From contig JBAYFK010000001.1 in NCBI GenBank assembly GCA_041667225.1, positions 1 to 37,278 on the forward strand: DNA of 37,278 bases, in the 5' to 3' direction. This stretch comes from Candidatus Omnitrophota bacterium (GTDB taxonomy: Bacteria; Omnitrophota; Gorgyraeia; 2-01-FULL-45-10). Below, piece after piece: positions 11,476-27,157 of the stretch. Positions within the stretch are counted from its first letter, which is position 1. Each line of letters begins with the position of its first letter. The notes beneath the pieces were generated by a model. It had not been told where the DNA came from, searched no databases, and worked only from the letters and a program-made list of their open reading frames with translations. The translations under genes and the position numbers were made by a program.

Positions 11476-11617
11476 TAGAAAATATATATTTCTAGGACCC
11501 GCGATTTTCTGTATAAACTCGGGGGAGTGATCGAGGGTCTTGAAGAAAATAGGTTTACACCATCTTAACTGCATCGCAGATATGGCTATTCTATAGGTGT
11601 GGATCGATTTTCAAGGA

Positions 11618-11657
11618 CCAGATTGCCTAGAAAAAAGAAGGCAATCTGGTTTTTTTA
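11618..11657 (+). terminator. rho-independent terminator-like hairpin (possible attenuator) 35 nt upstream of the giant gene ATG
   Basis: A perfect 10-bp stem, CCAGATTGCC (11618-11627) / GGCAATCTGG (11640-11649), encloses a 12-nt A-rich loop. Eight consecutive T (11650-11657) follow immediately. Confidence 0.6.
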
Positions 11658-11692
11658 TTGCCTCTGTGTTAATAAAATTGAAAGAGAGATTA

Positions 11693-14600
11693 ATGCCTGA
11701 AAGAAAATTTTTCGATCGATCAAATCCGCTGATCAAGACCATCTCTTTAATACTTCTCATCGCTTTCATAGCCCAGGATATAGCATGGGCTGATCCTCAA
11801 ATCTTTTTAAATCAAAGATCATCAGGCGACAAGTTGGCAGCGTCCACTTTTCTGAGGTCCGAAAAGGCCGTAAATAAAGTAAGCGCAAAAGCCATAGAGT
11901 ACGCTGTCGAAGAGTATAGCGCTATTCCCCGTGAAAAGCTCGACGTAGCATGCGTAAGAGCGTCTATAAGAAGTTTATTGGATAAGAATAAGGAATGGTT
12001 CGCTGCGCATGTCAGCTATTCAATGATGTCTCTTGATGGTACGCCCATAGGCGACGATGCGCATGACGGCGATATCGCCGAAGTGGTGGTAAAATTCGCT
12101 CCCGGCTGGTCGGTCAGGTATTTCGATCCCGCAACAGCTAGACCTCAAGAAGGATTCTCCGCTCCCGTAGCAATTAATGACAGGCTCCATAAACAGCTAA
12201 TAACCGGCCCCGGCGACTCTCCTAAGGGGCCGTTCAATTTCTCATTCGGAGAAGGTGTGGGCCTTCGTCATATGGAGGTTAATAATATCATCGCCTTCCA
12301 TGACCTGACCATTGCAAAAAAGGGTAAGTACCATGAAACCGAATTCTATGAGCGTAAGCTGGATGCCGACAAGGATCCAACTTACCATGCAAAAATAGAA
12401 AGAGCCGCAGACCTTCTGATGGCGCAAGGCATCGTTCTTTTTGCAAAAGGCATGGCCTGCACGATAGCGGCGGGAATACCTTTAATAATGCTTTTTACGA
12501 CCCCTCTCGTCGCTATATTCGGTATTTCCATGCTCCCCATAACTTATATATTCGGAAAAAAAGCGCATAAATATTTCATCAGCGCGAAAGGGTACTACGA
12601 TCGCTCCCTAAGCATAAGGGGTGATACCACGGTAGTACTTGTTGATATCCCGTCCCATCTCCTCCTGAGCGGAAAAGAACTGGATGGCTCCAGCTTTTAC
12701 CAGTTCACCCACATAGGAAGGGCCAGGCGCGTGATCTATATGCCGAAGAAGGCATTGCGCGATATGGATATAGCCGATCCCTACGACATGCGCCAACTCG
12801 CGACAATATTGAACCACGATCAGGTCGAGCTCGACATGATGCACAGAGATAACAGGATAGCCGCCGCAAAGACATACGCGGATTACGAAAATCTTCTTAC
12901 GGCCTTTCATGACGCCGCAAAACTTGAAGACCCATTCGGCGAAGCGGCGCATATAGAAGAGCGCATAGCGGGCTGGATGGAGATGGACGATTCCGCAGCT
13001 TCGATACTTAAAAGAGAGATCGAAGAAAAGGTCATGGAATTCGAGATGCGCCAAAGCAATATATTGGATTCGGAAGAATCGCTGGTCAGCGGCCGCTTCT
13101 CATATATATATACTACTGCTAGCATGGCGATGCAGATCGGTTATGCTTATGAGGTTCTGGGCGACCAAAGATCTGCCCACGAGTATTACGGGAAAGCCTG
13201 GTCCAATTTTGTCGAGGTCGTTTCATCTGACGTATATATACTGCCTATCTATGCCCAGCTCAATATAGTAAGGATCAATGCCTTTGAAGGCGACTATGCG
13301 GAAGCGGCCGTGGATTTTAAAAGGCTGACCAATTATGAGATAGGAGTTCCGCACCCGTCCGCTAAATATGTCAAAGGTTCAGTGCGCGTCGTCGAGACCC
13401 ATATCGCGGAAAATATTGAACGGTGGCGCGATGAGGTTTCGGCCCTTATGCGCCACCATGCTCAGGCCTCTGGCGATGTCGGCGGGATGGAAAGGGCGGC
13501 AGCGGCTATTGAAGATATTACGGGAGCTGTCAGTAAATACCTTGGAGAGCAGGAGGTTTTCGAGAAGAGGGAGAAGGAGCGGGCGAGCTATGGCGAACTT
13601 GTGGAAGAGCTGAGGCGCGCTATCCTGATCGGTAACAAACTTTGGGCGGCAAATGTACAGGATGCGCTTTCAGAGAGATTCAAAGGTGAATTACCGGAAG
13701 AAGTAGAGCGGGTGATAAGAGAGACGAGATCGCCGACCGCCGAGATGATCCCGGATGCCGATACGCTTGCAAGCTACATAGACGAACTGGAAAAGGCGGA
13801 GAATATACTTATAGATGAAGAGCAATATGAAAAAAAGGTCTTAAGGCCGCTATTCGACCTTTTGTTATCGTGCCTTGAGAGGGATTTTGACGGGACAGAT
13901 GAATTTGCTGCACATTGCCGCACTGCCATTTCAAAGCAGGATGCGTATGAGCTCCGGATGCAGATGAATAATAAGGACGAGGCGCTTCTCGATAAATTCA
14001 ACAAGATCAGGAGAAAAGACGGTACAGAAGATACTTCTATAGAACTTTATGGACTGCTCCTATTCCACCTTACTGCGGATTCGACGCCTTACATACGCCG
14101 TCTTTATAAAGAATTTATGCAGACCCGCCCGGTCGACAAAATAGCATTTGCACGCAAAGGAGTATCTTATCATACGCGTGGAGACGCAATAATCTATTAT
14201 TATCCCAAGAACCTTCTATTCGAAGGCAGGCGCGCCAATGCCAGAGAAGGACATAGATACGGAGAGGCGAGCGCTCTGGAGGACGCTAAATCCTCGGAGA
14301 ATGCCAGGAAGATCGCGCGGGCTGTTGAAATGTGGAAAACGGCCGCCGAGAACAACCGGGATCTTGACGAGAGGATAAGGCATTTCGAGGACATAACTTC
14401 TATCGTCGAGTTAAATATGAAGACGTCCCTTCTTTTTTCGGATCCACAGCAGAATGTGGTCCGTCCGATCCACTCAGGAAGAAGCCGTCACAGGCTGTAC
14501 CTTTCCAAGCATTATCTCGATTCGCTCGATATAAATAATGAGAGAGACATGAAAGAGCTCGCCACATGGCTCAATTATGGACAGGACTTTCTGGATACGC

Positions 14601-17600
14601 ACGATTTGATGGCGGATGGGGGATATGCGATACCGCGTATACAGAAGGCCCTTTCGAATTTAACATACTCATTTTTTGATCACGAGGATACCGGACTTTT
14701 AGAGCCGGGCTATCTCAAAGAACGGCTTGCGGCGTTCATGGAAGAGGATTTTCTCATCAAGTACAGGGAAGTGCTTCTTGCTGCGATAAAGGAAGAGAAG
14801 GAGGCCGAGGTTACTATGCGCACGATAGTCGAACCCGGCAGGGCCGCTCCTAATGAATATAAATTGGCGAGGAACTCTTATGGCCATCTTCTTTACCGGT
14901 ATGAGGGATTAGGACTTCGCTCCAAGGCTGACAAGGCCTATATGCAGATGACGATCGCTACGTCCGTCGTTCAGACGCACGAAGGCGGCATCACTCCGTG
15001 CACGGATCAGATCGAGCTTGTGCTTACGGCACTGCGTTTCGCGAGATGGGATGATTTCACAAAAGAACTGCGCAAGCTTTTAACAGGAAAAGGTTATCCC
15101 AGGCCTATCGAAAAGTCGGAGCTGCCTCTCGTCATATTTATGTTACGAGGCCGTTTCCAGAACGATCTTCGGCATGCGATCCATGCGCAGAAAGAGGCTG
15201 CCGATCCGTATTCCTACCCGATAGTGGAAAAGGTGGAGAAAGAGGCCGATAAACTTTTGAAAGAATTCTCAGAACACCCGTTCAGCGATCTGGGGCCTAA
15301 GGATGTCCAGGATAGCACAGCGACTCTTTCGTTCATAGGTAAGGCGCTGGGTATAAGATATTCTTCGTTCTTCCATGCTCCGGTCATCGAAGAAAGCGCC
15401 AAGGTGGGCATACCCTTCGGGATATATGCCGTACTCGATGCGGTCAAGCATTCGTTCCCATCCCTTAATGCAGCTATCTTTGCAGGTGCTATCGCCGTAT
15501 TCGGTATCGTCTTTATCATTGCTCATCTATTGAATGAAAGGGCGCCTCCGCGATCGGCAGGAGAAGCGTTCCGTATCTTTGCGGCGCCTGCTGCCGCGAC
15601 CATCGCAGGCGGTATTCTTTCCTATCTCTTTTTTACAAACCCATTATATGCAATTCTCTCAAGCATTCTCGCTCATCTTATTATAAATGCGATCGTTTGG
15701 GCGCTACGCCGTTTAAATATCGACATCAAATACTCGACCGTATATTTTCCGGGTTCTCATCGTGTGACATGGACAGAGATAGAGCGTATACGTGAACTTT
15801 CCGCAAAATGGGACCTTAAGGCTAACGGGTTGAAAAATCTTGAAGATGTGCTTAAAGACCCGGGAGCTGAAAATGTGCGGCGCGCCATACTTGACCTTCT
15901 TGAAGGGGGAACGTATAGCGCGCTCAGCCGTTTCCAGATGTACAAAGAGAGGGAACGCGGGTCAAAAGCGGAATTCCTTGGAGAATTGGTACAGGCGGCC
16001 TCGTGCCAGAGACGCATCAGGTCTTCAAAGGTCATCGAGATGGGTCCCATATTGGCAGGAGCTGAGATCGATGCAGTTGTCGAAGTAGATCATAAGAAGT
16101 ATGCCTCGAGAAGACAGACAGGGCTTACCTATGACCTTCCCGATGGGATATATCTCATGGAAGGGAAGGTTGACGAGTTTGGCGATATAGAACAGTTCAT
16201 CAGCTATATTTTCGAAACAAAACTTGATAAGTATCTGCGGGCCGCGCGGGAATTGAAGAAGAAGGGCAAGAAAGTTTCAGGGATCATATTTGCCGTAGGC
16301 GGCGGCATAGCCAGCTTGAATCCCGAGGAGTTCAGAAAGAGGCTGATCGAGATGGGAGAGTCGGATGAAGAGATCCTCGCCGCCGGCTTTGATCCCGAAA
16401 AATTCAAGGTATACACTTATCTTGTCCCGGAAACTATCTACGAGGAAGGGCCCAAGACCGCGCTTACGCCTAAGGATATAGAATATATCGATGCGGTAAT
16501 GAAAAGGCCGGAAGAGGATGGCTCTATACCGCAAGAGACGCTTTTAGAGTGCCGTTCGGTCCTTGAGCGCGCGCTTCTCCTGTTTGGGCTTGAGAGGGTG
16601 AGATCCGTCTATCTATCCAACCATTTCAGAAGGCACAATGTAAGCCTCGTGGCCCGTACATACGATATTAATGAATATGCGAAAGCCGTGCTCGACCTTA
16701 AGAGCGACATAGCCGAGATCGATAAAGATATGACCTTTGTCATGGACGATTCGTTCATAGCCGAAGATGGAACGGCTCCCGTTCTCGACGGGAAGAAGAC
16801 CGACAGGGTAAGGAACCCCAACTATGAAAAAATGGATTTCACTCTCGGGCAGAAGACGTGGGGGAATTTCGAGATGTTCATATCGAAGGACAGGTCGACC
16901 GTATATGTTTCGTCCGTTGAGAGGGGTTCTGCCGAGTACTTTTCTATCAACATGGATATGGCAGCGCCGCATCCGCTTATGTACCATTCGGGTGATCTGC
17001 ATATAGCGCTTGACGCATCTATCCCGGCCGCATCCTTAAACAACGGACATAATATAAATATGGCCAGGATCATAGGCATCCTCAGAGAGGCGATCGGGTT
17101 CAGAGAGGAAGTTGTAAAACATGATAGATCGGACTACTATTGGATAGACAGGCTGGGCGGCCGGGGAAATGAATTGGTGTCATACGATATTCTGGCTGCC
17201 CATAAGATCCCGCATCTTATGGAATTTGTCGGCCCTCATGCGCTCATACCGGATCTCTATGCGCTCAACGAAAAGAATAGACTTGAATTGCTTGCGGAAT
17301 TTGGCAGGCATAGTCCTGCGGTCCTGGGCAAAAAGTTCGCTTACGGTTACTATGCGATAGTTTCGGTCCCGCAAGGACGCAGGCCGACGAACGAGAAGTT
17401 CCCTCCGGCAGAGGAGCTTATTTTAAGCGCCAGCATGCCGGATAAATTTCTGCGCAGCCCAGCGCAATTCCAGAAAAGCGCCTCAGTGATAGCTGAAGAG
17501 TTCCTTGCAAACCTCAGGATTTTAGCTTCCGAAGAGGATATGAGTATGCCTGTACCTCGCTCGATCATGGTCGAGGATTCATACGGGAATATGAAGATCC

Positions 17601-20600
17601 GTTTTGAACTGGATCCCGTCAGGAAGGTGATCATCTCCGCCTCTGCCGTAGAAATGGTCCGGACGATATCTCAGAAAGACTTGAGAACCGTATTCATGGA
17701 ATCGGAAAGCATCATCACGTCCAGGACGGGTATGGTGGATATATCGAAGGTACGGCCCTCCAAACTCATGAGGTATGGATATGCAAAGATCGTAGGATCT
17801 AACGGTAACATTGTCATAGCTCCTGTCGAAGGCATGATCCAGAGGCCGATGCCGAGAAACTGGGCAATGGGGTTACCGTTCACATCGCTCGCCGTATCTT
17901 TAGCGGGTAAGCGCTCTGTTCCTGACAAGAAAAAATCCGGGAAGAAAGATGCGCCGTCGCCGAAACGGGAAGTCGTATTCGCGATCGATCTGCCGGCTTC
18001 TACTGGATTTGATGACGATGTACGCGAGAGCGAAAAGATATATGAATTTCTGGATGGATTTGAGCAGGATCATAAGGGTAAGCTAGGCGGGCTATTGGAA
18101 GATGTTCTTGAGGAGTTGATCTTTAATGTTACAGATCATGGCCGCGGCGGAAAGATGGTCATATATATGGAGAAAGACGCTGACGGTGAGCCGGCAGCTA
18201 TTGAGATCGTGACAACTGATAACGGGCCGGGGCTGCCCGATAGTCCCGATGATCTTGTAAAGAAAAGCTTGTTGGCACATGAAAGATTTGTTAATAGCCC
18301 GGATGACGAGCCGGAGCCTTTAGACGATGGTATTGATTATGCATTAATGAATGCTTACAGGGGGCAAGGTTTTGCCAGGATAGCCCTTGACCCGGATAGT
18401 GTTACTATTGAGTGTAACGGCTTGAAGTATTCAAGGTCTACAAACGATAAGAATGCTTCCTCATGGTTCGGTGAACCGGTAAAGAGCGAAGTTACGACCG
18501 GCGCCCGTTTCACCCTCGGTTTCTCATTACGGAGCGAAGCTACCCATATTCCTTCTATCCCTGTTGACCGCAGGCCGGTAGATTCAGGGCTTCTGGCTTC
18601 GAGCTTTGTCGAATACGACATGGACGTCAAAGAAACGGTCAACCCTGACAATAAACCTATTAAGGCTCTCTATTGCGCCTCCGGCGCCGATCTCTCGAAT
18701 TTTCTTCTATCGACTAACGCAACCGAAGGATACTTTGTTTCTCACTACCGTGGGCGTTTCCGCACCATGAGGGGCAAAGACCTAAGGGAGTGCTTTGAAA
18801 GCGCGTCACCAGAGGATTATATAAAAAAGAATCTGTCTCCATATTATCGGGAAAAGTTCGAAAGGGGTTTTGCAGGCACGGAAACCTTTTATAGCATGCG
18901 TCAAACGATCGCCGCTATGGCTTTTGAACTGAAGTCGATCGGTGTTGACTTGTCGACCGTAAAGATAGATACGCTTAACGGCCGGCCCGTCTTACGGTTC
19001 CGATGGAAGTATTATGGCTGCGACGAGCGCGATTATTCCGTAGTCCTTATAGACGCCGATGCGACAAAACCGGAGGAGTATGCCGCTGATCTTGCCGGTG
19101 TTGCTATGGATGTATATTATCAGCGCGCTGGGAATGAGCTTCCTATGGAGTACAGGAAAGGAGCAAAAAGCTATATCGGTTGGATATACGCCAGGATGAA
19201 ACCGGGTGCTTATGTCGTGACAGACGACAACGCTTTTGACAATGCCCAGCAATGGTACCGCGACCTTGGCGGCTCCTTTCCACTGCCGGCTAAAGAGGTC
19301 GACATGCCCGAGCTGTGGCCTATAGAGTGGGTCATTCTCAGGGCTCTGCGCCCTATGGATATATTTAACCATGAAGCGGCGTTTTACGGCTGGCGCATGA
19401 CTGTCCGCCAGAAGCCGATCGACGCGGAGATGGTAACGGACGATATAGGTAATCTTGTGAAGGTGTCCAAAAGGCCTTTCCTGGCAAGGATCGTAGCATA
19501 TTTGCGGGGTAAGGGTATTTCGGAGCGGTGGATAGCGTCTTTGGGCGGGCTCGAGGAATTGTTCTTCAGCGGAATTGTAATAAGCGCTTTTGCTGCAGCA
19601 GCGCCCCATATCTTTGCAATTTCATTCTCAGCCGCCCTTTATACAGGTTTTGGCATAAGCGCCGTCCTATTTACGCTCTCACACATTAAAGAAGTTTACA
19701 GGATGACAGGAGGTGCTCTTACTACCGCGCCTCCTTCAGCCTCGGATATGATCTTTATAACGGGATTGGGAATGGCCTTCCGCGCGGTATATCTTGCGGG
19801 GCTGGCCCTGCTCCCATTTGGCCCTTACAATATAGCAGTTGCTTTACCTCTCATAATAGTTCTTCATAGCATTTATAATGCGTTCATAGCCCCAAGATCG
19901 GACCTTGTTCTGGGTATGGCATCAGTGAACCCGGATAAGCCATTCAAAGAACTCACCCGCATAAACTCTTCTATTGCAACCGATACAACCGCCCTTATCA
20001 ATCAGTTATCGAAAAGCTTCTCGTCGGCATATCTGATAATGAACCCTTTGCGCAACATCAAAGCCGGCCTTGCCAGATATGGTTATGTTAAGCGGACCTC
20101 TCTGGAATCATGCCGCCTTGGAATAAGACGTATTCTGGCCACATGGCATCTTTCCGAAACTAAAAAGAAGAAGCTCTCGGCCGCTCTTAACAGGATAGAT
20201 AAGATACTGGCCAAGATGGACCGCATGGACGGGATGATAGACGGTATTGAGCTATTACCTCGCGGCGTAAGCGTCTCTTCCGTCGCATCAGGCCTCAACA
20301 TTTGTGTGATAAGACTGAAGAGCATACTCGAAGGGATCAGGGAAGAGGATGTCCATCTCATCGAAAGACTGGAAGGCATAAGCGCCTCTATTCACGAGAT
20401 GGCAGTCGGGCATGAGGAGATAAACTCTGAAAAATTGATCGGCTATGTAAAGGCATTTAAAGCGATATCGACCCACCAAGGGGTAGGAGATAAGAGCCGC
20501 GCCAGGATATCTCGCCTCGCAGATGACATGAGCGCCTTGTTAGCAAGCGCTAATGAACAGGGTGGAGGATCACGATCCCCGGCAGCCGAGCAGATCGAGA

Positions 20601-23600
20601 CATCACTCTTTGATTCGGAAGATATGAGCCTTATTGACAGGATGTGGATAGCTATGCCAGTCCAGGATGGACGTGATTGGAGCGCTGCCGTAGAAGAGCT
20701 GCAATCCAGGTTCAGCAAAGATCATCCGGGAGACCTCCAGGTAATAGAAGAAGGGGCGTCTTATGACATAGATGAGCGCGTATCGGACCGGTTGGTTAAG
20801 TATGTCGAATCCATTGGCGGGAAACATGCCGGTGACGTACATATAATGACGTCTACTATAAGCGCTGCGCTGCAAAATGTGTATCAGCACGGGGATAATT
20901 ACGGAGCTATGATATTAAGGGCCAGGCGCACGGGCCGAAAGATGGAAGTGGAATTTGTAATAATAGACCGCGGACAAGGGTTTATCGACCGCCAAGGTAA
21001 GCATGTGGATATCCACGAAGCCGTTAAATACGGGAAGTCTTTCGGCGCGAACGGCCAAAGCGGTATAGGGCTGACCATTACCGTTGAGGTGGCCGATAGC
21101 ATTTCTATTACGACCGTCGACAGATCTTCCGGGTCATCGGAGGCTTACTACTGGGAGAAGGGGGACGTTCATGAGTCCCGTCTGAAAACTGCGCCTGTTG
21201 AGAGCGGTTCAAAGATAGTCTTTACCAGAGAGGTCGATTTAACTCCGGAGCCCGATGATCCGAAGGGCGAAAACGTTGCAGTAGAGCCGGCCGCTCAAAG
21301 CGTTGACATTGTTAAATGGTATTTTGAAGAATATGAACCTTCTCAAGTTGAAATGGCCGCATCGTTCAACGATGGGACTCTTACGGGGGACCATATAATA
21401 GAATGGGTAGACCGTGTGGTACGTCCACTAAAGCCGGACTTAGATGTTACCGGGATCGTTGAAACGGGCAAACCATTCACGCCGCGTCAGGCAGGGCTCT
21501 TAGGTGAAAAGATCTTGAAAGATGTCCTTATCCCGCACGGTATCATTGCGCATGTGTCGGCCGTTGCTTCAGGTGTAGCTGTCGGATCGATAACTAATAC
21601 GGAGACGATAACAACACCTGCGGGACGTACGATACCTTTATATACGGTGCGTACTCTGAGAGGTGAATTCGGCCAAGGGACAGCTTTTGCCGAATATGTC
21701 ATCGTGCCGGAAGAGATAGCCAAGGAGTCTCATGAAATTGCAGATCATTATGCCAAACTATGGCGTGACCACATGGAAGGGCGCGCTCCTGCCGCTCTTT
21801 TCAGATACCAGAAGCGGTATGCGGAATGGATCTTTATGCATCTTTTCGGTAAGTCCGATGCCGCTGCTGCCGCGCGCCTCGTCCGTGAATGTGACCTTGC
21901 AGAGGAGCTGAGCCATTCTGATATGCAGGCTTTTACGGAGACGGTATTAGAAAGGCCTCTCGACACGGCGGTACCTGAGGATGTAGAGGCGGCAAGCCAC
22001 GCGATACTTAAACCCGCATCTATCGAAGAGCTCGCCTTTGAAGCAGCCCGCGACGGCGAAACTCGTTATATCCTCGCTGAGGCAGTTCTTGAGGTTGAAG
22101 CAAAGCTTAATGCTATAATACGCTCGCCGATGAGCGCCTATAATTTCCTCGAGTTCCTGCACGGAAATGTCGTCGACCTGCATATACCCGGTGATGAGCC
22201 GCCGGAATATAACGTTGCCAGGAATATACTCCTATCCGTTATGAGTAAACACCTTTTCGGCAAGAGCACTACGGACACTCGCGAGTGGAGAGACTATCTT
22301 GACGAGACGTTATGGAATATGGACGAATTTAATGCTGCCCTGAAGAAGGCGGCCGCCGCGGCTTACCGCGAAGAATTCTTGAGTCACGATGAAAGAGTAA
22401 AGAAGGCCGAAGGATATAAAACAAGGCGCCGGCACACGGAACTCTACACTAACATGTATAGGGAGCTCGTAAGGCCGCGTTTTGCGCTGGGCGCGCCAAA
22501 GGTCCTTAACATCTGCTCCGGCGCGGGCGCCAGCGCAATATTGTATGCGACTAACTGCTCCTCATCGGTCATGATCGACAGGCTGTCCTTCGGATATAAC
22601 GCAGGAGTGATGAGCGGCCGGTCTGAGCGGACAGAACGGGAGCGATATTTTAATGATATCGCTCAATATGATTTTCCCCGGACTGACACTCTCACAGGGA
22701 TCGGATCTCTCTGGCTTCCTCTTAAGTGGGAGCTGGCAGAGATGGGTATAGGAGAGGATGCGATCACGGTGGATAATCCTGCATATGGCACGTGGCGCGT
22801 CCGTTTTACGTGGCAGCATCCCGACGATGATCAGCCGCGCGAGAGGACATTGTGGTTCTATCAGGAGGACATTCCCGAATCATCGGGCGTTGCCGATCTT
22901 TCGGCCGGCGTAAGGCTTGACGCTCAAAAGGTGGACATCCTGGATGCCGATATACTCTTCGACAGAGCCGCCGAACACACTTTGCGCGCGACTACCGATA
23001 TGCCGCTCTATATGAAACGCAAAAGCATAGTGATCACCGATAATCCGGTCAGAAAAAATATATTCGATACACAGGATTCTCTCGTTCCCGTAACGCTAGA
23101 TCCGGCCCTTTCGGAACAGTCCAGCCGTTTCGGATATGTAGGGAAAAATACGTATGAAAAACATGACGCGCTTGATGCTATGGCGGTCTACGAAGTCCGG
23201 GGTTCGTCTAACGGGTTTTCCGGAGATAACGTCAATATTTATAGCGCAGACTCGCTTACCGGAGAAGAGAGGGATAGGCTCGCCCGTTTTGTGATACGGG
23301 AAGGGCTCGATATAAGTACTACATATATAGGAGAAGATGAACGCGGTATTGAGCTTGGCCGCGCCTATCTCGACAGGTTGACCAGGAAGAACGAGAGCGG
23401 GGAGAGTGGATATTTTGTAGCTTTTAAAGGAGGGGATCCGGTAGGTATCGTCAGTTATGCGGTTCTTCCCGGATGGCTTGCAGCCGAAAGAGAATACGAG
23501 TCTACCATAGACGATCTGTACGTTACCGGTAGCGTCAGAAATCAGGGGATAGCAGCAGATCTCGTGCGGCAGGCCGAAACGCATTTACGAAAGAAGAACG

Positions 23601-26600
23601 TCAAAAATTACTATGTCGTAGTAGGGCAGGGTGCCCCGTCTCAGGACTTCTGGAAAAAATTTATTCCCCGGGAATATCAGACCGTGGATGACAAAGGTGA
23701 GCTCTTTTCATCGATCGTTCCTTTTGAGAACCCAAGAGAGATAGCTCGGGTGGAGGCATGTATAAAAGCCGTGAAGGCGGGCGCGTTCCAGAACGGCAAC
23801 GTGGTCGACTTAAGAAGGATACCGCCCGATATGGAGGTCATTATCGTTGGGGATCTCCATGCGCGGGTGGATAATCTCGGCAATATCCTTGAGCATGCGG
23901 ATCCCGGGACCGGCAAGAGCGTATATGAAAAGGTCAGGGACGGCGAGGCGGTACTCATACTGCTTGGCGATGTGGTGAACAACGATCCTCCGGATACTGA
24001 AAATATCGCGGCCATTGCGGAGCGCCTCTCTTCGATGGAAGAGTCCGTCGATATGATCAAAAAGGTCATGGACCTGAAGATCTCCCATCCGGATAGCGTC
24101 TACTACGTGCTCGGCAATCATGATGATCCTTTTTCCATGTGCAATAGAGGCGGGATAGATCAGTCGAGGATATACAGGGATACGATCCGGTCGCGTTACG
24201 GCGAGAGATATCTTTATCTCTATAACGATCTTATTCAGGCGAGCCCGGTAATGGTCATAGCAGAAGGTCTTGTAGCCACGCATGCTGCCCCAATAAGAAG
24301 GCTCTCTCTTGAGAATATAATCAATGCCGATAAAGATTCTGATGAGATACATTTCGGGATGTGGGGGCGCCATGAATCCCATTTTGGAGATCTGGTCGAT
24401 ATTTCGGAAGACTCGAGTCCCCTCCGCCAGCTGCTTTATCAGTCGCGCAGGGAGCAGTCGTACGACAGCAGAGATGTTGTTGAATTCCTCGATAGGGTCG
24501 GCCAAAAAGACGGCGTATTCATCGTAGGCCATACACCTGATCTTATACCGGAAGGCGATTTCCACGCCGAGATCGAGGATAGACATCACATTATATATGC
24601 CGCGCGCGATAAGACGGGATACGCTTCGTTCACAGCCGGCAAGCTCGATTTTGTGGAAACGTCCGCCGTTGAAATGCCGCGCGTAGAAAGATCATCGCCA
24701 ACGCCATCGTCCGGTCTTAAGCTTGCCGACAAAGTCCTTTTAGCGCTGCCGATCGAGGAACAGCAGAGAGTGGACGCGGTGGTGCGTTTTGCCGCGCATG
24801 TGATGAGGCTTAGCGGAATAGGAGATGCAGATCTGGAAAAGGAAGCCGCTTTCGACGCCATCCCTGCTTCGACTGTAGCGGCGTTCATGCTGGCCGAGAG
24901 AGATAAAGACGCTAAACTTGACAGTTATGATGAGAGCTGGGAGGCGGACGCGATAATATTTTTAGGTCATAACCATCCGTTATTCAAAGATACTAAAGTG
25001 ACGCCGAAACTGAGCATACGCGTTCTTTTCGAGATGCGTAAGCGCGGTATGCAGGTTTCAGAATATTGTATTTCCATGTGCGATTCCGTAGATAAGCTCG
25101 TATCATTCCTTTTGAACGGCCCGCTCGAAGAGAAAGAGAGGATGGCCCGCGCAACCCTTATGATAGAAGAGCTTGGAATGAAAGATCTCATCCCATGGTC
25201 GGCCGCAGCGCTCGACAGGATATCTCTTTACGCTGAATGGGCCGGTACACCCGACGAAGCGCGCGTTGCGTGCTCTTTCCTGGAGCATTTCACCGGGCAC
25301 CTTTTTGAGTCACGCGCCATGGCAGATGCGTTCATGTTCAATCTGTCCGTGGTGGAGGGTTTCCTTGGCCCAGGCAATATAAATAACAAGGATACGGGGG
25401 TCGTCTATCTTCTCGGCGGGGCAAGCCTGCTGTACGACCAGGCCAGACAGATCGCCTTATCTTTAAAGGTCAGTCCTTCGCGTATACATCCGTTCTCTTT
25501 GAACAGGAAGACGGCTGAAAGCGATGACGAGACGATAAGGGAATACATAAAACAGGAAGGCCTCGACCGCTATAAAAATCTCGTCATAGTCGACACAGGG
25601 TTCCATGGCAGCATGGCGCGCCGTCTTAAAGATGTATTGGGATCGATGCCGAACTCTCCCCGTAACGTACACGCGAGACTTTTGGCGATGAGCTCAGAAC
25701 CGTATGAATACAAGGGTATGGATGTTCTGGGATATAACCATGTTCTTCAGGAGGTAGATCCAAATTGGTCCGAGATCGATAGGAACGCTCTTTTCTTAAT
25801 AACCCATCTCCTCGATAACATATTCCCAAAACGCGAACAGTCGCCCGGCCGTCTCGATACTGCGAACGTTCTCGTGGCCGTCACTCCGGTTACTGTACCT
25901 TCGGAAGTGCCAGGTTTTGCAGCTATAGTGTCCAACGAGATGCGACTCGGTACGGGCAGATTATTATCACGCGGTTTCGAATATCCCGATCCGGGGAATA
26001 GCGTGTGGGAGAGATGGATTCCCTCCGGAAAAGATGAAATGGAAGGCGCTCCAGCGGCGGAAATTCCGGACCTTCTCGACAGTACGGTCAGGGGCAACGC
26101 TTCATACGGTAAATTGAAACAGGAATTGACATCCCGGTTTACGCGTCTCGGCCAGAAGGGCGTTTCTTTAGATAGTGTGGAGGATGTTCTCGATGAAAAT
26201 AGCGTAGAGATCTTCCAGGCGATGTGGGGCCTGAGGAACATCTTTACCGGTTCCAAGTTTTCTGATGAAAGGGCGCAGACGGATATGTGCTATGAGGTGA
26301 GCGTGGCTGTATGCGAAGCTTTTGACGAAGCGGTCCCCGGCCATGAAATCGTCCTCATGAGCGGATATTATGACGATGCCGGAGGCGGGCTCTTTAGAAT
26401 ACCTCATTTCTGGGTAGTGATAGACGGCGATATCGCAATAGACCTTACATACGGACAGTTCGATAGCGAATACGAGGATACCGCTCTCGTTGTCCGGACC
26501 GGAGAGCTCCCGCGGTACAAGCTGGAGCAGGGGAAGGTGGCTCCTTGGAAGAGCGCTCCTAGACCCCAGACATCAGTAGCCGCTACCATTTCAGCCATAC

Positions 26601-27157
26601 ATTATGCGTTGAAGACCGACGCTTCTCATCAGGCCGGGTCGAGGATACTTCTTTCTGCCAGCTTATTTGATGATATCGACCGCTCAAATCTTGAAAGATT
26701 GTTCAATGGCACAAATATAGAGATAGTGGAGCCGGAAGAGCTCAAGCGCAGGACGATGAACGAACATTCTTCCAAAGAAAACCTTGCGGTCGTGCTTACG
26801 CAGGAAGATTTCACGCAGGGTAAGACGTGGAGCGGCGCCGAAGATGATTACAGGGTGAAGTCGAGCGTGCTCATATTGGGAGACAAGCTGACCGGTTCTA
26901 ATTATTTATATCTGGAAGGCGTGATAGAGCTTGCCAGAGCGATGATGCGTTCGGATAGAAATGGTATTAAAGAGGCATACGAGCTCATATCCGGCGCCAT
27001 TCTTAGCGATGAGGCCTTGAGTAAGCTCGGGCCTTCGCCCAACACCATAGCGTTCGCGATCAATGCGATACTCAAGTTCAGGCCCATAGTAGTGCACGAT
27101 ACGGGAGAGTTGGAAAGATTTAAGAGCATGGTAGAGCGTTATCTTATAAACGCATAA
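11693..27157 (+). CDS. giant multidomain polytopic membrane protein (about 5,150 aa) of unknown function, with CPBP-like x2, GHKL ATPase-like x2, GNAT, metallophosphatase and Cys-His-Asp papain/transglutaminase-like signatures
   Basis: A single open frame runs 15.5 kb with no stop. I chose ATG 11693 (MPERKFFDRSNPLIKTISLILLIAFIAQDIAWADP, a signal anchor), because the track start GTG 11597 would translate through the terminator-like hairpin. Domain motifs are detailed in the findings. Product name and function are unknown. Confidence 0.9.
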   Translation: MPERKFFDRSNPLIKTISLILLIAFIAQDIAWADPQIFLNQRSSGDKLAASTFLRSEKAVNKVSAKAIEYAVEEYSAIPREKLDVACVRASIRSLLDKNKEWFAAHVSYSMMSLDGTPIGDDAHDGDIAEVVVKFAPGWSVRYFDPATARPQEGFSAPVAINDRLHKQLITGPGDSPKGPFNFSFGEGVGLRHMEVNNIIAFHDLTIAKKGKYHETEFYERKLDADKDPTYHAKIERAADLLMAQGIVLFAKGMACTIAAGIPLIMLFTTPLVAIFGISMLPITYIFGKKAHKYFISAKGYYDRSLSIRGDTTVVLVDIPSHLLLSGKELDGSSFYQFTHIGRARRVIYMPKKALRDMDIADPYDMRQLATILNHDQVELDMMHRDNRIAAAKTYADYENLLTAFHDAAKLEDPFGEAAHIEERIAGWMEMDDSAASILKREIEEKVMEFEMRQSNILDSEESLVSGRFSYIYTTASMAMQIGYAYEVLGDQRSAHEYYGKAWSNFVEVVSSDVYILPIYAQLNIVRINAFEGDYAEAAVDFKRLTNYEIGVPHPSAKYVKGSVRVVETHIAENIERWRDEVSALMRHHAQASGDVGGMERAAAAIEDITGAVSKYLGEQEVFEKREKERASYGELVEELRRAILIGNKLWAANVQDALSERFKGELPEEVERVIRETRSPTAEMIPDADTLASYIDELEKAENILIDEEQYEKKVLRPLFDLLLSCLERDFDGTDEFAAHCRTAISKQDAYELRMQMNNKDEALLDKFNKIRRKDGTEDTSIELYGLLLFHLTADSTPYIRRLYKEFMQTRPVDKIAFARKGVSYHTRGDAIIYYYPKNLLFEGRRANAREGHRYGEASALEDAKSSENARKIARAVEMWKTAAENNRDLDERIRHFEDITSIVELNMKTSLLFSDPQQNVVRPIHSGRSRHRLYLSKHYLDSLDINNERDMKELATWLNYGQDFLDTHDLMADGGYAIPRIQKALSNLTYSFFDHEDTGLLEPGYLKERLAAFMEEDFLIKYREVLLAAIKEEKEAEVTMRTIVEPGRAAPNEYKLARNSYGHLLYRYEGLGLRSKADKAYMQMTIATSVVQTHEGGITPCTDQIELVLTALRFARWDDFTKELRKLLTGKGYPRPIEKSELPLVIFMLRGRFQNDLRHAIHAQKEAADPYSYPIVEKVEKEADKLLKEFSEHPFSDLGPKDVQDSTATLSFIGKALGIRYSSFFHAPVIEESAKVGIPFGIYAVLDAVKHSFPSLNAAIFAGAIAVFGIVFIIAHLLNERAPPRSAGEAFRIFAAPAAATIAGGILSYLFFTNPLYAILSSILAHLIINAIVWALRRLNIDIKYSTVYFPGSHRVTWTEIERIRELSAKWDLKANGLKNLEDVLKDPGAENVRRAILDLLEGGTYSALSRFQMYKERERGSKAEFLGELVQAASCQRRIRSSKVIEMGPILAGAEIDAVVEVDHKKYASRRQTGLTYDLPDGIYLMEGKVDEFGDIEQFISYIFETKLDKYLRAARELKKKGKKVSGIIFAVGGGIASLNPEEFRKRLIEMGESDEEILAAGFDPEKFKVYTYLVPETIYEEGPKTALTPKDIEYIDAVMKRPEEDGSIPQETLLECRSVLERALLLFGLERVRSVYLSNHFRRHNVSLVARTYDINEYAKAVLDLKSDIAEIDKDMTFVMDDSFIAEDGTAPVLDGKKTDRVRNPNYEKMDFTLGQKTWGNFEMFISKDRSTVYVSSVERGSAEYFSINMDMAAPHPLMYHSGDLHIALDASIPAASLNNGHNINMARIIGILREAIGFREEVVKHDRSDYYWIDRLGGRGNELVSYDILAAHKIPHLMEFVGPHALIPDLYALNEKNRLELLAEFGRHSPAVLGKKFAYGYYAIVSVPQGRRPTNEKFPPAEELILSASMPDKFLRSPAQFQKSASVIAEEFLANLRILASEEDMSMPVPRSIMVEDSYGNMKIRFELDPVRKVIISASAVEMVRTISQKDLRTVFMESESIITSRTGMVDISKVRPSKLMRYGYAKIVGSNGNIVIAPVEGMIQRPMPRNWAMGLPFTSLAVSLAGKRSVPDKKKSGKKDAPSPKREVVFAIDLPASTGFDDDVRESEKIYEFLDGFEQDHKGKLGGLLEDVLEELIFNVTDHGRGGKMVIYMEKDADGEPAAIEIVTTDNGPGLPDSPDDLVKKSLLAHERFVNSPDDEPEPLDDGIDYALMNAYRGQGFARIALDPDSVTIECNGLKYSRSTNDKNASSWFGEPVKSEVTTGARFTLGFSLRSEATHIPSIPVDRRPVDSGLLASSFVEYDMDVKETVNPDNKPIKALYCASGADLSNFLLSTNATEGYFVSHYRGRFRTMRGKDLRECFESASPEDYIKKNLSPYYREKFERGFAGTETFYSMRQTIAAMAFELKSIGVDLSTVKIDTLNGRPVLRFRWKYYGCDERDYSVVLIDADATKPEEYAADLAGVAMDVYYQRAGNELPMEYRKGAKSYIGWIYARMKPGAYVVTDDNAFDNAQQWYRDLGGSFPLPAKEVDMPELWPIEWVILRALRPMDIFNHEAAFYGWRMTVRQKPIDAEMVTDDIGNLVKVSKRPFLARIVAYLRGKGISERWIASLGGLEELFFSGIVISAFAAAAPHIFAISFSAALYTGFGISAVLFTLSHIKEVYRMTGGALTTAPPSASDMIFITGLGMAFRAVYLAGLALLPFGPYNIAVALPLIIVLHSIYNAFIAPRSDLVLGMASVNPDKPFKELTRINSSIATDTTALINQLSKSFSSAYLIMNPLRNIKAGLARYGYVKRTSLESCRLGIRRILATWHLSETKKKKLSAALNRIDKILAKMDRMDGMIDGIELLPRGVSVSSVASGLNICVIRLKSILEGIREEDVHLIERLEGISASIHEMAVGHEEINSEKLIGYVKAFKAISTHQGVGDKSRARISRLADDMSALLASANEQGGGSRSPAAEQIETSLFDSEDMSLIDRMWIAMPVQDGRDWSAAVEELQSRFSKDHPGDLQVIEEGASYDIDERVSDRLVKYVESIGGKHAGDVHIMTSTISAALQNVYQHGDNYGAMILRARRTGRKMEVEFVIIDRGQGFIDRQGKHVDIHEAVKYGKSFGANGQSGIGLTITVEVADSISITTVDRSSGSSEAYYWEKGDVHESRLKTAPVESGSKIVFTREVDLTPEPDDPKGENVAVEPAAQSVDIVKWYFEEYEPSQVEMAASFNDGTLTGDHIIEWVDRVVRPLKPDLDVTGIVETGKPFTPRQAGLLGEKILKDVLIPHGIIAHVSAVASGVAVGSITNTETITTPAGRTIPLYTVRTLRGEFGQGTAFAEYVIVPEEIAKESHEIADHYAKLWRDHMEGRAPAALFRYQKRYAEWIFMHLFGKSDAAAAARLVRECDLAEELSHSDMQAFTETVLERPLDTAVPEDVEAASHAILKPASIEELAFEAARDGETRYILAEAVLEVEAKLNAIIRSPMSAYNFLEFLHGNVVDLHIPGDEPPEYNVARNILLSVMSKHLFGKSTTDTREWRDYLDETLWNMDEFNAALKKAAAAAYREEFLSHDERVKKAEGYKTRRRHTELYTNMYRELVRPRFALGAPKVLNICSGAGASAILYATNCSSSVMIDRLSFGYNAGVMSGRSERTERERYFNDIAQYDFPRTDTLTGIGSLWLPLKWELAEMGIGEDAITVDNPAYGTWRVRFTWQHPDDDQPRERTLWFYQEDIPESSGVADLSAGVRLDAQKVDILDADILFDRAAEHTLRATTDMPLYMKRKSIVITDNPVRKNIFDTQDSLVPVTLDPALSEQSSRFGYVGKNTYEKHDALDAMAVYEVRGSSNGFSGDNVNIYSADSLTGEERDRLARFVIREGLDISTTYIGEDERGIELGRAYLDRLTRKNESGESGYFVAFKGGDPVGIVSYAVLPGWLAAEREYESTIDDLYVTGSVRNQGIAADLVRQAETHLRKKNVKNYYVVVGQGAPSQDFWKKFIPREYQTVDDKGELFSSIVPFENPREIARVEACIKAVKAGAFQNGNVVDLRRIPPDMEVIIVGDLHARVDNLGNILEHADPGTGKSVYEKVRDGEAVLILLGDVVNNDPPDTENIAAIAERLSSMEESVDMIKKVMDLKISHPDSVYYVLGNHDDPFSMCNRGGIDQSRIYRDTIRSRYGERYLYLYNDLIQASPVMVIAEGLVATHAAPIRRLSLENIINADKDSDEIHFGMWGRHESHFGDLVDISEDSSPLRQLLYQSRREQSYDSRDVVEFLDRVGQKDGVFIVGHTPDLIPEGDFHAEIEDRHHIIYAARDKTGYASFTAGKLDFVETSAVEMPRVERSSPTPSSGLKLADKVLLALPIEEQQRVDAVVRFAAHVMRLSGIGDADLEKEAAFDAIPASTVAAFMLAERDKDAKLDSYDESWEADAIIFLGHNHPLFKDTKVTPKLSIRVLFEMRKRGMQVSEYCISMCDSVDKLVSFLLNGPLEEKERMARATLMIEELGMKDLIPWSAAALDRISLYAEWAGTPDEARVACSFLEHFTGHLFESRAMADAFMFNLSVVEGFLGPGNINNKDTGVVYLLGGASLLYDQARQIALSLKVSPSRIHPFSLNRKTAESDDETIREYIKQEGLDRYKNLVIVDTGFHGSMARRLKDVLGSMPNSPRNVHARLLAMSSEPYEYKGMDVLGYNHVLQEVDPNWSEIDRNALFLITHLLDNIFPKREQSPGRLDTANVLVAVTPVTVPSEVPGFAAIVSNEMRLGTGRLLSRGFEYPDPGNSVWERWIPSGKDEMEGAPAAEIPDLLDSTVRGNASYGKLKQELTSRFTRLGQKGVSLDSVEDVLDENSVEIFQAMWGLRNIFTGSKFSDERAQTDMCYEVSVAVCEAFDEAVPGHEIVLMSGYYDDAGGGLFRIPHFWVVIDGDIAIDLTYGQFDSEYEDTALVVRTGELPRYKLEQGKVAPWKSAPRPQTSVAATISAIHYALKTDASHQAGSRILLSASLFDDIDRSNLERLFNGTNIEIVEPEELKRRTMNEHSSKENLAVVLTQEDFTQGKTWSGAEDDYRVKSSVLILGDKLTGSNYLYLEGVIELARAMMRSDRNGIKEAYELISGAILSDEALSKLGPSPNTIAFAINAILKFRPIVVHDTGELERFKSMVERYLINA

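Follow-up and report, generated by a model that had tools for sequence, protein, structure and literature searches.

When a giant protein carries the same three kinds of domain twice and in the same order, did it grow by duplicating the whole unit, or were its repeated domains brought together in some other way? The question is raised by a stretch of Candidatus Omnitrophota DNA of 37,278 nucleotides (contig JBAYFK010000001.1 of assembly GCA_041667225.1, positions 1 to 37,278; this whole stretch is called the window below), on whose forward strand a single open reading frame (ORF) encodes a protein of about five thousand residues. An earlier reading of this protein, made from the sequence only, saw in it two copies of a super-module, each with a CPBP-like membrane block, a GHKL-like ATPase domain and a Rossmann-like, perhaps methyltransferase-like module, and proposed that the protein had grown by duplicating this unit. 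We refer to the two Rossmann-like modules as A and B. In our analysis they are likely to be anciently diverged copies of an uncatalogued family with the class I S-adenosylmethionine (SAM) methyltransferase fold, housed in separately shuffled cassettes, and not the product of a three-domain duplication.

11597-27157, forward strand: giant ORF, 5,186 aa from GTG 11597
18563-19435, forward strand: module A, predicted class I methyltransferase-fold domain, aa 2323-2613 (hidden Markov model (HMM), AlphaFold2, Foldseek; edges from BLAST)
22385-23251, forward strand: module B, divergent copy of the module A domain, aa 3597-3885 (HMMs, AlphaFold2, Foldseek)

Residues of the giant protein are numbered from GTG 11597 throughout. 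The true start is probably ATG 11693, which would give 5,154 aa, since an ortholog from another genome, P0055, aligns from residue 33 onward.

Homology of modules A and B

The eight peptides on which the sequence-only reading had built its alignment are all present in the translation of the giant ORF, where they span aa 2355-2547 in module A and aa 3634-3818 in module B. Their starts, nt 18659 and 22496, precede by 3 nt the positions that had been given, 18662 and 22499. By BLASTP the two modules share 21% identity over 154 aa, with E = 0.005 when two pieces of ~600 aa are compared and E = 0.034 against the whole protein, the latter figure coming from sliding windows, as BLAST of the entire giant protein on itself returned the identity match only. 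The Smith-Waterman score of A against B is 67, compared with 34.1 +/- 5.2 in 1000 shuffles (z = 6.3; 0/1000 as high), and other windows of the giant protein score at most 45 against either module. Judged pairwise, the similarity is weak yet above chance, and at the DNA level we, like the sequence-only reading, detect none between the two modules.

The decisive evidence comes from profiles. An HMM of the A clade, made from seven relatives of module A that other genomes encode and containing no sequence of this window, matches the giant protein at aa 2323-2611 (3e-80) and at aa 3638-3794 (3.9e-11), and nowhere else, while an HMM of intermediate sequences finds both module A (1.5e-18) and module B (7.4e-30). 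Bridging sequences exist as well: at six loci in other genomes (L011, L013, L014, L018, L024 and L026) the same region is matched by both modules. When alignments without shared sequences were compared by hhalign (31 A-clade against 4 B-clade sequences), aa 2346-2550 aligned with aa 3623-3822 over 186 columns with a probability of 98.1% and E = 7.5e-14, and all four peptide pairs that had been proposed fell in register. Another hhalign comparison, A3 against A2 (E = 1e-73), was discarded because the two alignments share sequences. Because the A-clade HMM, the bridging sequences and the disjoint-clade alignment agree, we conclude from these comparisons that the two modules, of ~290 aa each, are homologous, as had been suggested.

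Duplicated unit or separate cassettes

Homology of A and B is what duplication of a CPBP-GHKL-Rossmann-like unit in tandem, followed by divergence down to protein-level traces, would leave behind, and the domains around the modules have to be considered next to it:

15368-15694, forward strand: CPBP1, CPBP/Rce1-like membrane block 1, aa 1258-1366 (Pfam Rce1-like E = 0.0092, under the gathering score)
17888-19486, forward strand: variable cassette slot, aa 2098-2630, containing a Lys-rich linker, GHKL1 and module A
17987-18562, forward strand: GHKL1, aa 2131-2322, weak ATPase domain of histidine-kinase-like type (HATPase_c E = 1.3e-4 in a scan of this segment by itself)
19487-19996, forward strand: CPBP2, CPBP/Rce1-like membrane block 2, aa 2631-2800 (Pfam Rce1-like E = 0.014, aa 2651-2737)
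20714-21316, forward strand: GHKL2, RsbW/SpoIIAB-type ATPase domain, aa 3040-3240 (HATPase_c_2 at ~aa 3091-3173)
21317-22384, forward strand: spacer of ~355 aa between GHKL2 and module B, aa 3241-3596, kept in the ortholog P0055
23390-23659, forward strand: GNAT acetyltransferase domain directly after module B, aa 3932-4021 (Acetyltransf_1 E = 2.2e-10)
aa 4079-4313: metallophosphoesterase domain after the GNAT domain (Pfam Metallophos E = 1.2e-8)

The duplication model draws on the order of these domains, CPBP1...GHKL1-A followed by CPBP2...GHKL2...B, in which three domain types recur in the same sequence and the A/B pair is truly homologous. Two copies of three domain types would fall into such a repeated order by chance in ~6 of 90 arrangements, by our own arithmetic, and we have counted this figure on the side of duplication. 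The spacing tells against it. The distances from CPBP to GHKL, ~790 and ~290 residues in the sequence-only reading, agree with the Pfam positions and are unequal between the two units, and the statement that each GHKL-like domain is followed by a module holds for GHKL1, which abuts module A, but not in the same sense for GHKL2, which ~355 residues part from module B. This spacer has no Pfam match at E <= 1; the peptide 'HLFGKS' is present in it twice, at aa 3415 and aa 3552.

Nor are the copies of each domain one another's closest relatives. In a maximum-likelihood tree of 172 instances of the module domain, A and B fall in different deep clades whose common ancestor is the root. Module A shares 45-50% identity with domains outside this protein, in alignments that end at the domain edge (starting at 2323/2324 and ending at 2606-2627 for its relatives by BLAST), compared with 21% with B. 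Module B is 68% identical to its copy in the ortholog, and its nearest non-orthologous relative, P0118, is 31% identical. A profile of CPBP2 relatives, which are 36-41% identical to it, does not detect CPBP1. The similarity of GHKL1 to GHKL2 is near noise (phmmer E 0.004-0.01), and each has closer relatives in other proteins. GHKL2 passes its Pfam model (HATPase_c_2 E = 1e-6, 29.3 bits against a cutoff of 27.4); GHKL1, at 22.8 bits, is under the HATPase_c cutoff of 26.4. An N-box, 'EELIFNVTDHG', and a G1 motif, 'DNGPG', can be read in its sequence.

The ortholog P0055 also bears on the model. This protein of 4,816 aa is collinear with the giant protein at 63-72% identity and keeps CPBP1, CPBP2, GHKL2, the spacer, module B, the GNAT domain and the phosphoesterase, but lacks GHKL1 and module A. 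Collinearity by BLASTP breaks after '...LPFTS' and resumes at 'RI(V/I)xYLRxKG', and between these two edges P0055 has a 277-aa GNAT cassette (Acetyltransf_1, 21.7 bits against a cutoff of 20.7) where the protein of the window has the 533 aa of residues 2098-2630. A 357-aa insertion follows GHKL2 in P0055, which is also without a counterpart of aa 4450-4812 of the giant protein.

The relatives of the modules in other proteins point the same way. Their neighbours vary (HD, sigma-70, MraZ, MTS methyltransferase, GNAT and nucleoside-diphosphate kinase domains), the module occurs without a nearby CPBP or a GHKL of this type, and no module lies closer than 500 residues to the CPBP2-like domains of relatives. 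In 6 of 175 instances the module has a GHKL of this type no more than 150 residues away, compared with 1.9 +/- 1.2 under random placement, and the pairing takes both orders; the association is a mild tendency and not a fixed super-module. In one protein, P0050, a GHKL2-like domain is followed directly by an A-type module, which is the reshuffling expected from cassette exchange. Taken together, the tree, the ortholog, the CPBP and GHKL comparisons and the spacing argue against growth by duplication of the three-domain unit, which we regard as quite improbable. What these comparisons describe is a protein in which modules A and B sit in independently exchangeable cassettes, with GHKL1 and A occupying one slot that is taken by a GNAT domain in the ortholog.

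Several other observations concern the giant protein and its relatives at large. Among family proteins P0002-P0151 of other genomes, a peptide R-[SA]-E-x-R lies within ~40 residues of the module start in 10 of 175 instances and of the module end in 6 of 175, with ~3 expected from its overall density; in the giant protein itself, none of the peptides R-S/A-E-x-R, D-x-A-M, GARLA and ASPL occurs. By pairwise BLAST, no internal repeat of the giant protein is stronger than one that pairs aa 344-485 with aa 934-1075 (window 12626-13051 and 14396-14821; 31% over 152 aa, E = 2e-10) and has no relation to the modules. A segment at aa 1848-1939 (window 17138-17413) bears a weak resemblance (26% over 92 aa, E = 0.065) to aa 3939-4026, in the GNAT domain, and may be a second, degenerate GNAT-like segment; a Pfam scan of aa 1800-2130 gave nothing at E <= 1. 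By hydropathy, hydrophobic helices lie at aa 1294-1370, within or near CPBP1, and CPBP2 has ~4 of them by a rough estimate. The genes around the giant ORF form a housekeeping setting, with PNPase, FtsK, RodZ, MiaB, PgsA and PgpA upstream and LigT, CinA and AlaRS downstream.

Fold, family and possible chemistry

The guess that the modules are Rossmann-like and resemble methyltransferases is borne out at the level of the predicted fold. AlphaFold2 models built from 33-sequence alignments are confident for both, with a predicted local distance difference test (pLDDT) score of 92.7 and a predicted template-modelling (pTM) score of 0.91 for module A, and 84.1 and 0.83 for module B. The order of elements is alike in the two models: N-terminal helices, beta1, a Gly-rich loop, alphaA, beta2 (which ends in Asp), a helical insert, alphaB ('EL...G'), an extra beta-hairpin with F-x-W, beta3, beta4 ('D-x-Y-Y-Q-R/K-A'), alphaD, beta5 ('P-G-G...T-D-D') and C-terminal strands. 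Both models thus have the class I strand order within a Rossmann-like alpha/beta fold. In Foldseek searches of the PDB, all of the top 50 matches to module A are class I SAM methyltransferases (NNMT, 2i62, at 8e-5; DOT1L; RNMT; PNMT; PPM1/LCMT), and so are most of the top matches to module B (TPMT, 3bgd, at 2e-4; NNMT; BamL; RNMT), with Foldseek probabilities for these class I matches of up to 1.00. The only weak Pfam matches that recur, all of them sub-threshold, are to methyltransferase families, namely Methyltransf_31 twice (0.0016), TylF (0.0019), Methyltransf_24, Methyltransf_3 and Methyltransf_11. The models and their structural neighbours support a Rossmann-like fold of the class I SAM-methyltransferase type for the modules.

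The family is large and, as far as its members carry a source name, comes from a single phylum. A profile search of 1.84 billion representative proteins returned 688 cluster representatives at E <= 1e-3, of which 195 were at <= 1e-30, and every member with a source name is from Candidatus Omnitrophota. Named members are annotated as 'hypothetical protein' or bear a name taken from another domain. The host proteins mostly have 1,000-7,800 residues, and 21 of the best 150 proteins have 2-4 copies; in other Omnitrophota genomes, relatives of the modules also lie in open frames that run uninterrupted for 81,822 codons (locus L014 G313:C1) and 23,032 codons (locus L002 G035:C6). Stand-alone members of ~300-360 aa exist too, one of them a 303-aa form on a 33-kb contig amid ordinary metabolic genes, and the gene neighbourhoods of such homologs are housekeeping and uninformative. 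A separate search for homologous proteins with the family profile returned three short proteins. One member from the ENA, P0019 (501 aa), is fused to a nucleoside-diphosphate-kinase domain (PF00334, by precomputed annotation).

Conservation across the family follows the predicted elements. 'VNP' comes before beta1, which itself holds a Tyr; the loop after beta1 has G-x-D, then 'LLSTNA', and the consensus of motif I is Y-G-G-A-G-A-D, with one Gly conserved at 94% and Asp closing the motif in 85% of instances. Further on come 'F-x-D' at the end of beta2, 'Y...K...G', 'EL...G' and an invariant F-x-W, and the distal part has an Asp after beta3, 'D-x-Y-Y-Q-R/K-A', 'GG...TDD' and 'YGW...R'. At the end of beta2, Asp is found in 60% of 172 instances and Ser in 20%. 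The corresponding key residues of the two modules are as follows:

Module A: Y2359-C-A-S-G2363-A-D2365; S2382; E2444-L...G2449; F2468-x-W2470; D2505-VYYQRA2511; T2542-D-D2544
Module B: N3638-I-C-S-G3642-A-G3644; D3661; E3712-L...G3717; F3737-x-W3739; D3785-ILFDRA3791; T3814-D-N3816

We compared these with two features of class I enzymes, the motif I E/D-x-G-x-G-x-G after beta1 and the acidic residue that contacts the ribose hydroxyls at the end of beta2, where class I enzymes in general have one. Here, and elsewhere in the analysis, several results weigh against the interpretation that we favour. Motif I of the family is G-x-D and not GxGxG, as the sequence-only reading had already seen from the modules themselves (A reads Y-C-A-S-G-A-D, B reads N-I-C-S-G-A-G). 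Module A is without the acidic residue at the end of beta2, having S2382 where module B has D3661, and module B has lost four residues of the family pattern: the 'VNP' Asn, the Tyr in beta1, the Asp of the loop and the 'Y...K' Lys. The Foldseek matches are distant, with E of 8e-5 to 1e-3 and template-modelling (TM) scores of 0.25-0.48. When 19 and 33 members were scanned against Pfam and NCBIfam, no model reached threshold, and from NCBIfam there was not even a weaker match; an hhalign comparison that set the family against a single canonical MTS-type methyltransferase profile, drawn from these same proteins, gave no significant match (probability 0.7%). As to the cassettes, a search for a third ortholog gave domain-level matches only, and the slot may have changed either by gain of GHKL1 and module A in the lineage of the giant protein or by their replacement in that of P0055.

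Single-sequence searches of the PDB with module A and with module B gave nothing meaningful, and a sequence search with the family profile gave one echo, to a 3-oxoacyl-ACP reductase in the stretch beta3-helix-beta4 (E = 0.027). This weak local match would suit Rossmann modules that bind NAD(P) in the manner of short-chain dehydrogenases, but it covers 46 residues only, Foldseek gives methyltransferases and not dehydrogenases, and inspection of the family finds neither a TGxxxGxG motif nor a YxxxK at the dehydrogenase position, so that we give this idea hardly any credence.

A more serious competitor accepts the methyltransferase-like shape and denies the methyl transfer: the modules would then carry out other chemistry on a SAM-derived or other nucleotide cofactor, or serve as non-catalytic binding or scaffold domains. 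The non-canonical motif I, with its conserved Asp at the position of the usual third Gly, is in line with this, as are the Ser at the beta2 acidic position of module A, the loss of four family-conserved polar residues from module B, the curated methyltransferase models that all stay under threshold and the low TM scores. Spermidine-synthase-like aminopropyl transferases are a precedent for different chemistry with a SAM-derived cofactor. This alternative has to reckon with polar conservation at the class I cofactor and substrate sites (the beta1 loop, the ends of beta2 and beta3, 'D.YYQ[RK]A' and 'TDD'), which speaks for an active site over a scaffold, and with structural neighbours that are nearly all SAM methyltransferases, and we consider it unlikely.

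In the reading that we favour, the long, membrane-anchored multi-enzyme proteins of Omnitrophota use the family as a component that can be deployed again and again, and it also has a stand-alone form of ~300 aa. Each module would use the beta1 loop and the beta2 end to bind SAM or a close analogue, and would transfer a methyl group to a substrate, perhaps a protein or a small molecule on which the kinase-like, acetyltransferase and phosphatase domains nearby also act. We give genuine SAM-dependent methyl transfer by the modules close to even odds. Module A, with its Ser in place of the beta2 Asp, or module B, with its four lost polar residues, may have altered or reduced activity. Because CPBP2, which lies between them, has ~4 hydrophobic helices by the rough hydropathy estimate, A and B would face one and the same compartment, and as the neighbouring domains need ATP, acetyl-CoA and SAM, that compartment is presumably the cytoplasm.

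One could also speculate, though we think it rather less likely still than a fold without methyl transfer, that the modules represent a new, Omnitrophota-restricted 'VNP / G-x-D / F-x-W' enzyme family in which the loop Asp and the extra hairpin set an unusual cofactor or substrate. Travelling with an RsbW-like GHKL as one exchangeable cassette, such an enzyme could be part of a modification and regulation circuit built into the giants, combining methylation with phosphorylation, acetylation and dephosphorylation.

Relation to known systems

Among characterized enzymes, the nearest structures to the modules are those of the small-molecule N-methyltransferases NNMT, PNMT and TPMT (2i62, 1hnn and 3bgd), followed by DOT1L, RNMT (mRNA cap guanine-N7) and PPM1/LCMT. 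Like class I methyltransferases, the modules are predicted to have a core in which beta strands and helices alternate in an unchanged order. A loop that contains Gly follows beta1, the beta2 end is acidic (in module B and the family consensus), another acidic residue comes after beta3 and a 'PGG' turn precedes beta5; with NNMT and PNMT in particular the modules share predicted helical inserts that would cap the active site. They differ from these enzymes in matching no curated sequence model, in the TM range given above and in a motif I that ends in Asp and not Gly, and the family has signatures of its own in the 'VNP' before beta1, 'Y...K...G', 'EL...G' and the extra hairpin with F-x-W. GHKL2, which passes the threshold of HATPase_c_2, resembles the GHKL serine kinases of the RsbW/SpoIIAB type, but no partner-switching components of those systems (STAS, PP2C) are seen next to the modules.

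The giant protein belongs with the long, multi-enzyme, membrane-anchored proteins of Omnitrophota. It comes from the same phylum and has an ORF of several thousand codons with transmembrane anchors and no repeats, in a housekeeping setting, and it brings together a GHKL ATPase, a GNAT domain, a methyltransferase-like domain and a phosphoesterase. That long Omnitrophota proteins mix methyltransferase, HATPase, GNAT and hydrolase domains is already known: a Pfam co-occurrence 'Module 1' of methyltransferase, HATPase, GNAT and HAD/HD has been described in them (bioRxiv 10.64898/2026.06.07.730766), and West-Roberts et al. have reported, in giant proteins, methyltransferase-like domains that structure prediction alone reveals (bioRxiv 10.1101/2023.11.21.568195). 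What sets the present case apart from the surveyed giants is, first, that this domain is missed by PF08241 and by every other Pfam model, so that Pfam-based surveys would count it as unannotated sequence. These giants have been catalogued mainly through Pfam, with large stretches left unassigned, and two such stretches now belong to a defined family with sharp edges, its own signature, an F-x-W hairpin and confident models, which can enter domain catalogues and be checked for SAM binding. The second difference is a pair of orthologs with GHKL1 and module A in one and a GNAT domain in the other at fixed breakpoints, a concrete cassette replacement between two giant proteins. It corrects the idea that a repeated domain order in such giants implies tandem duplication, and offers a clean example of giants evolving by cassette exchange and not by internal duplication.

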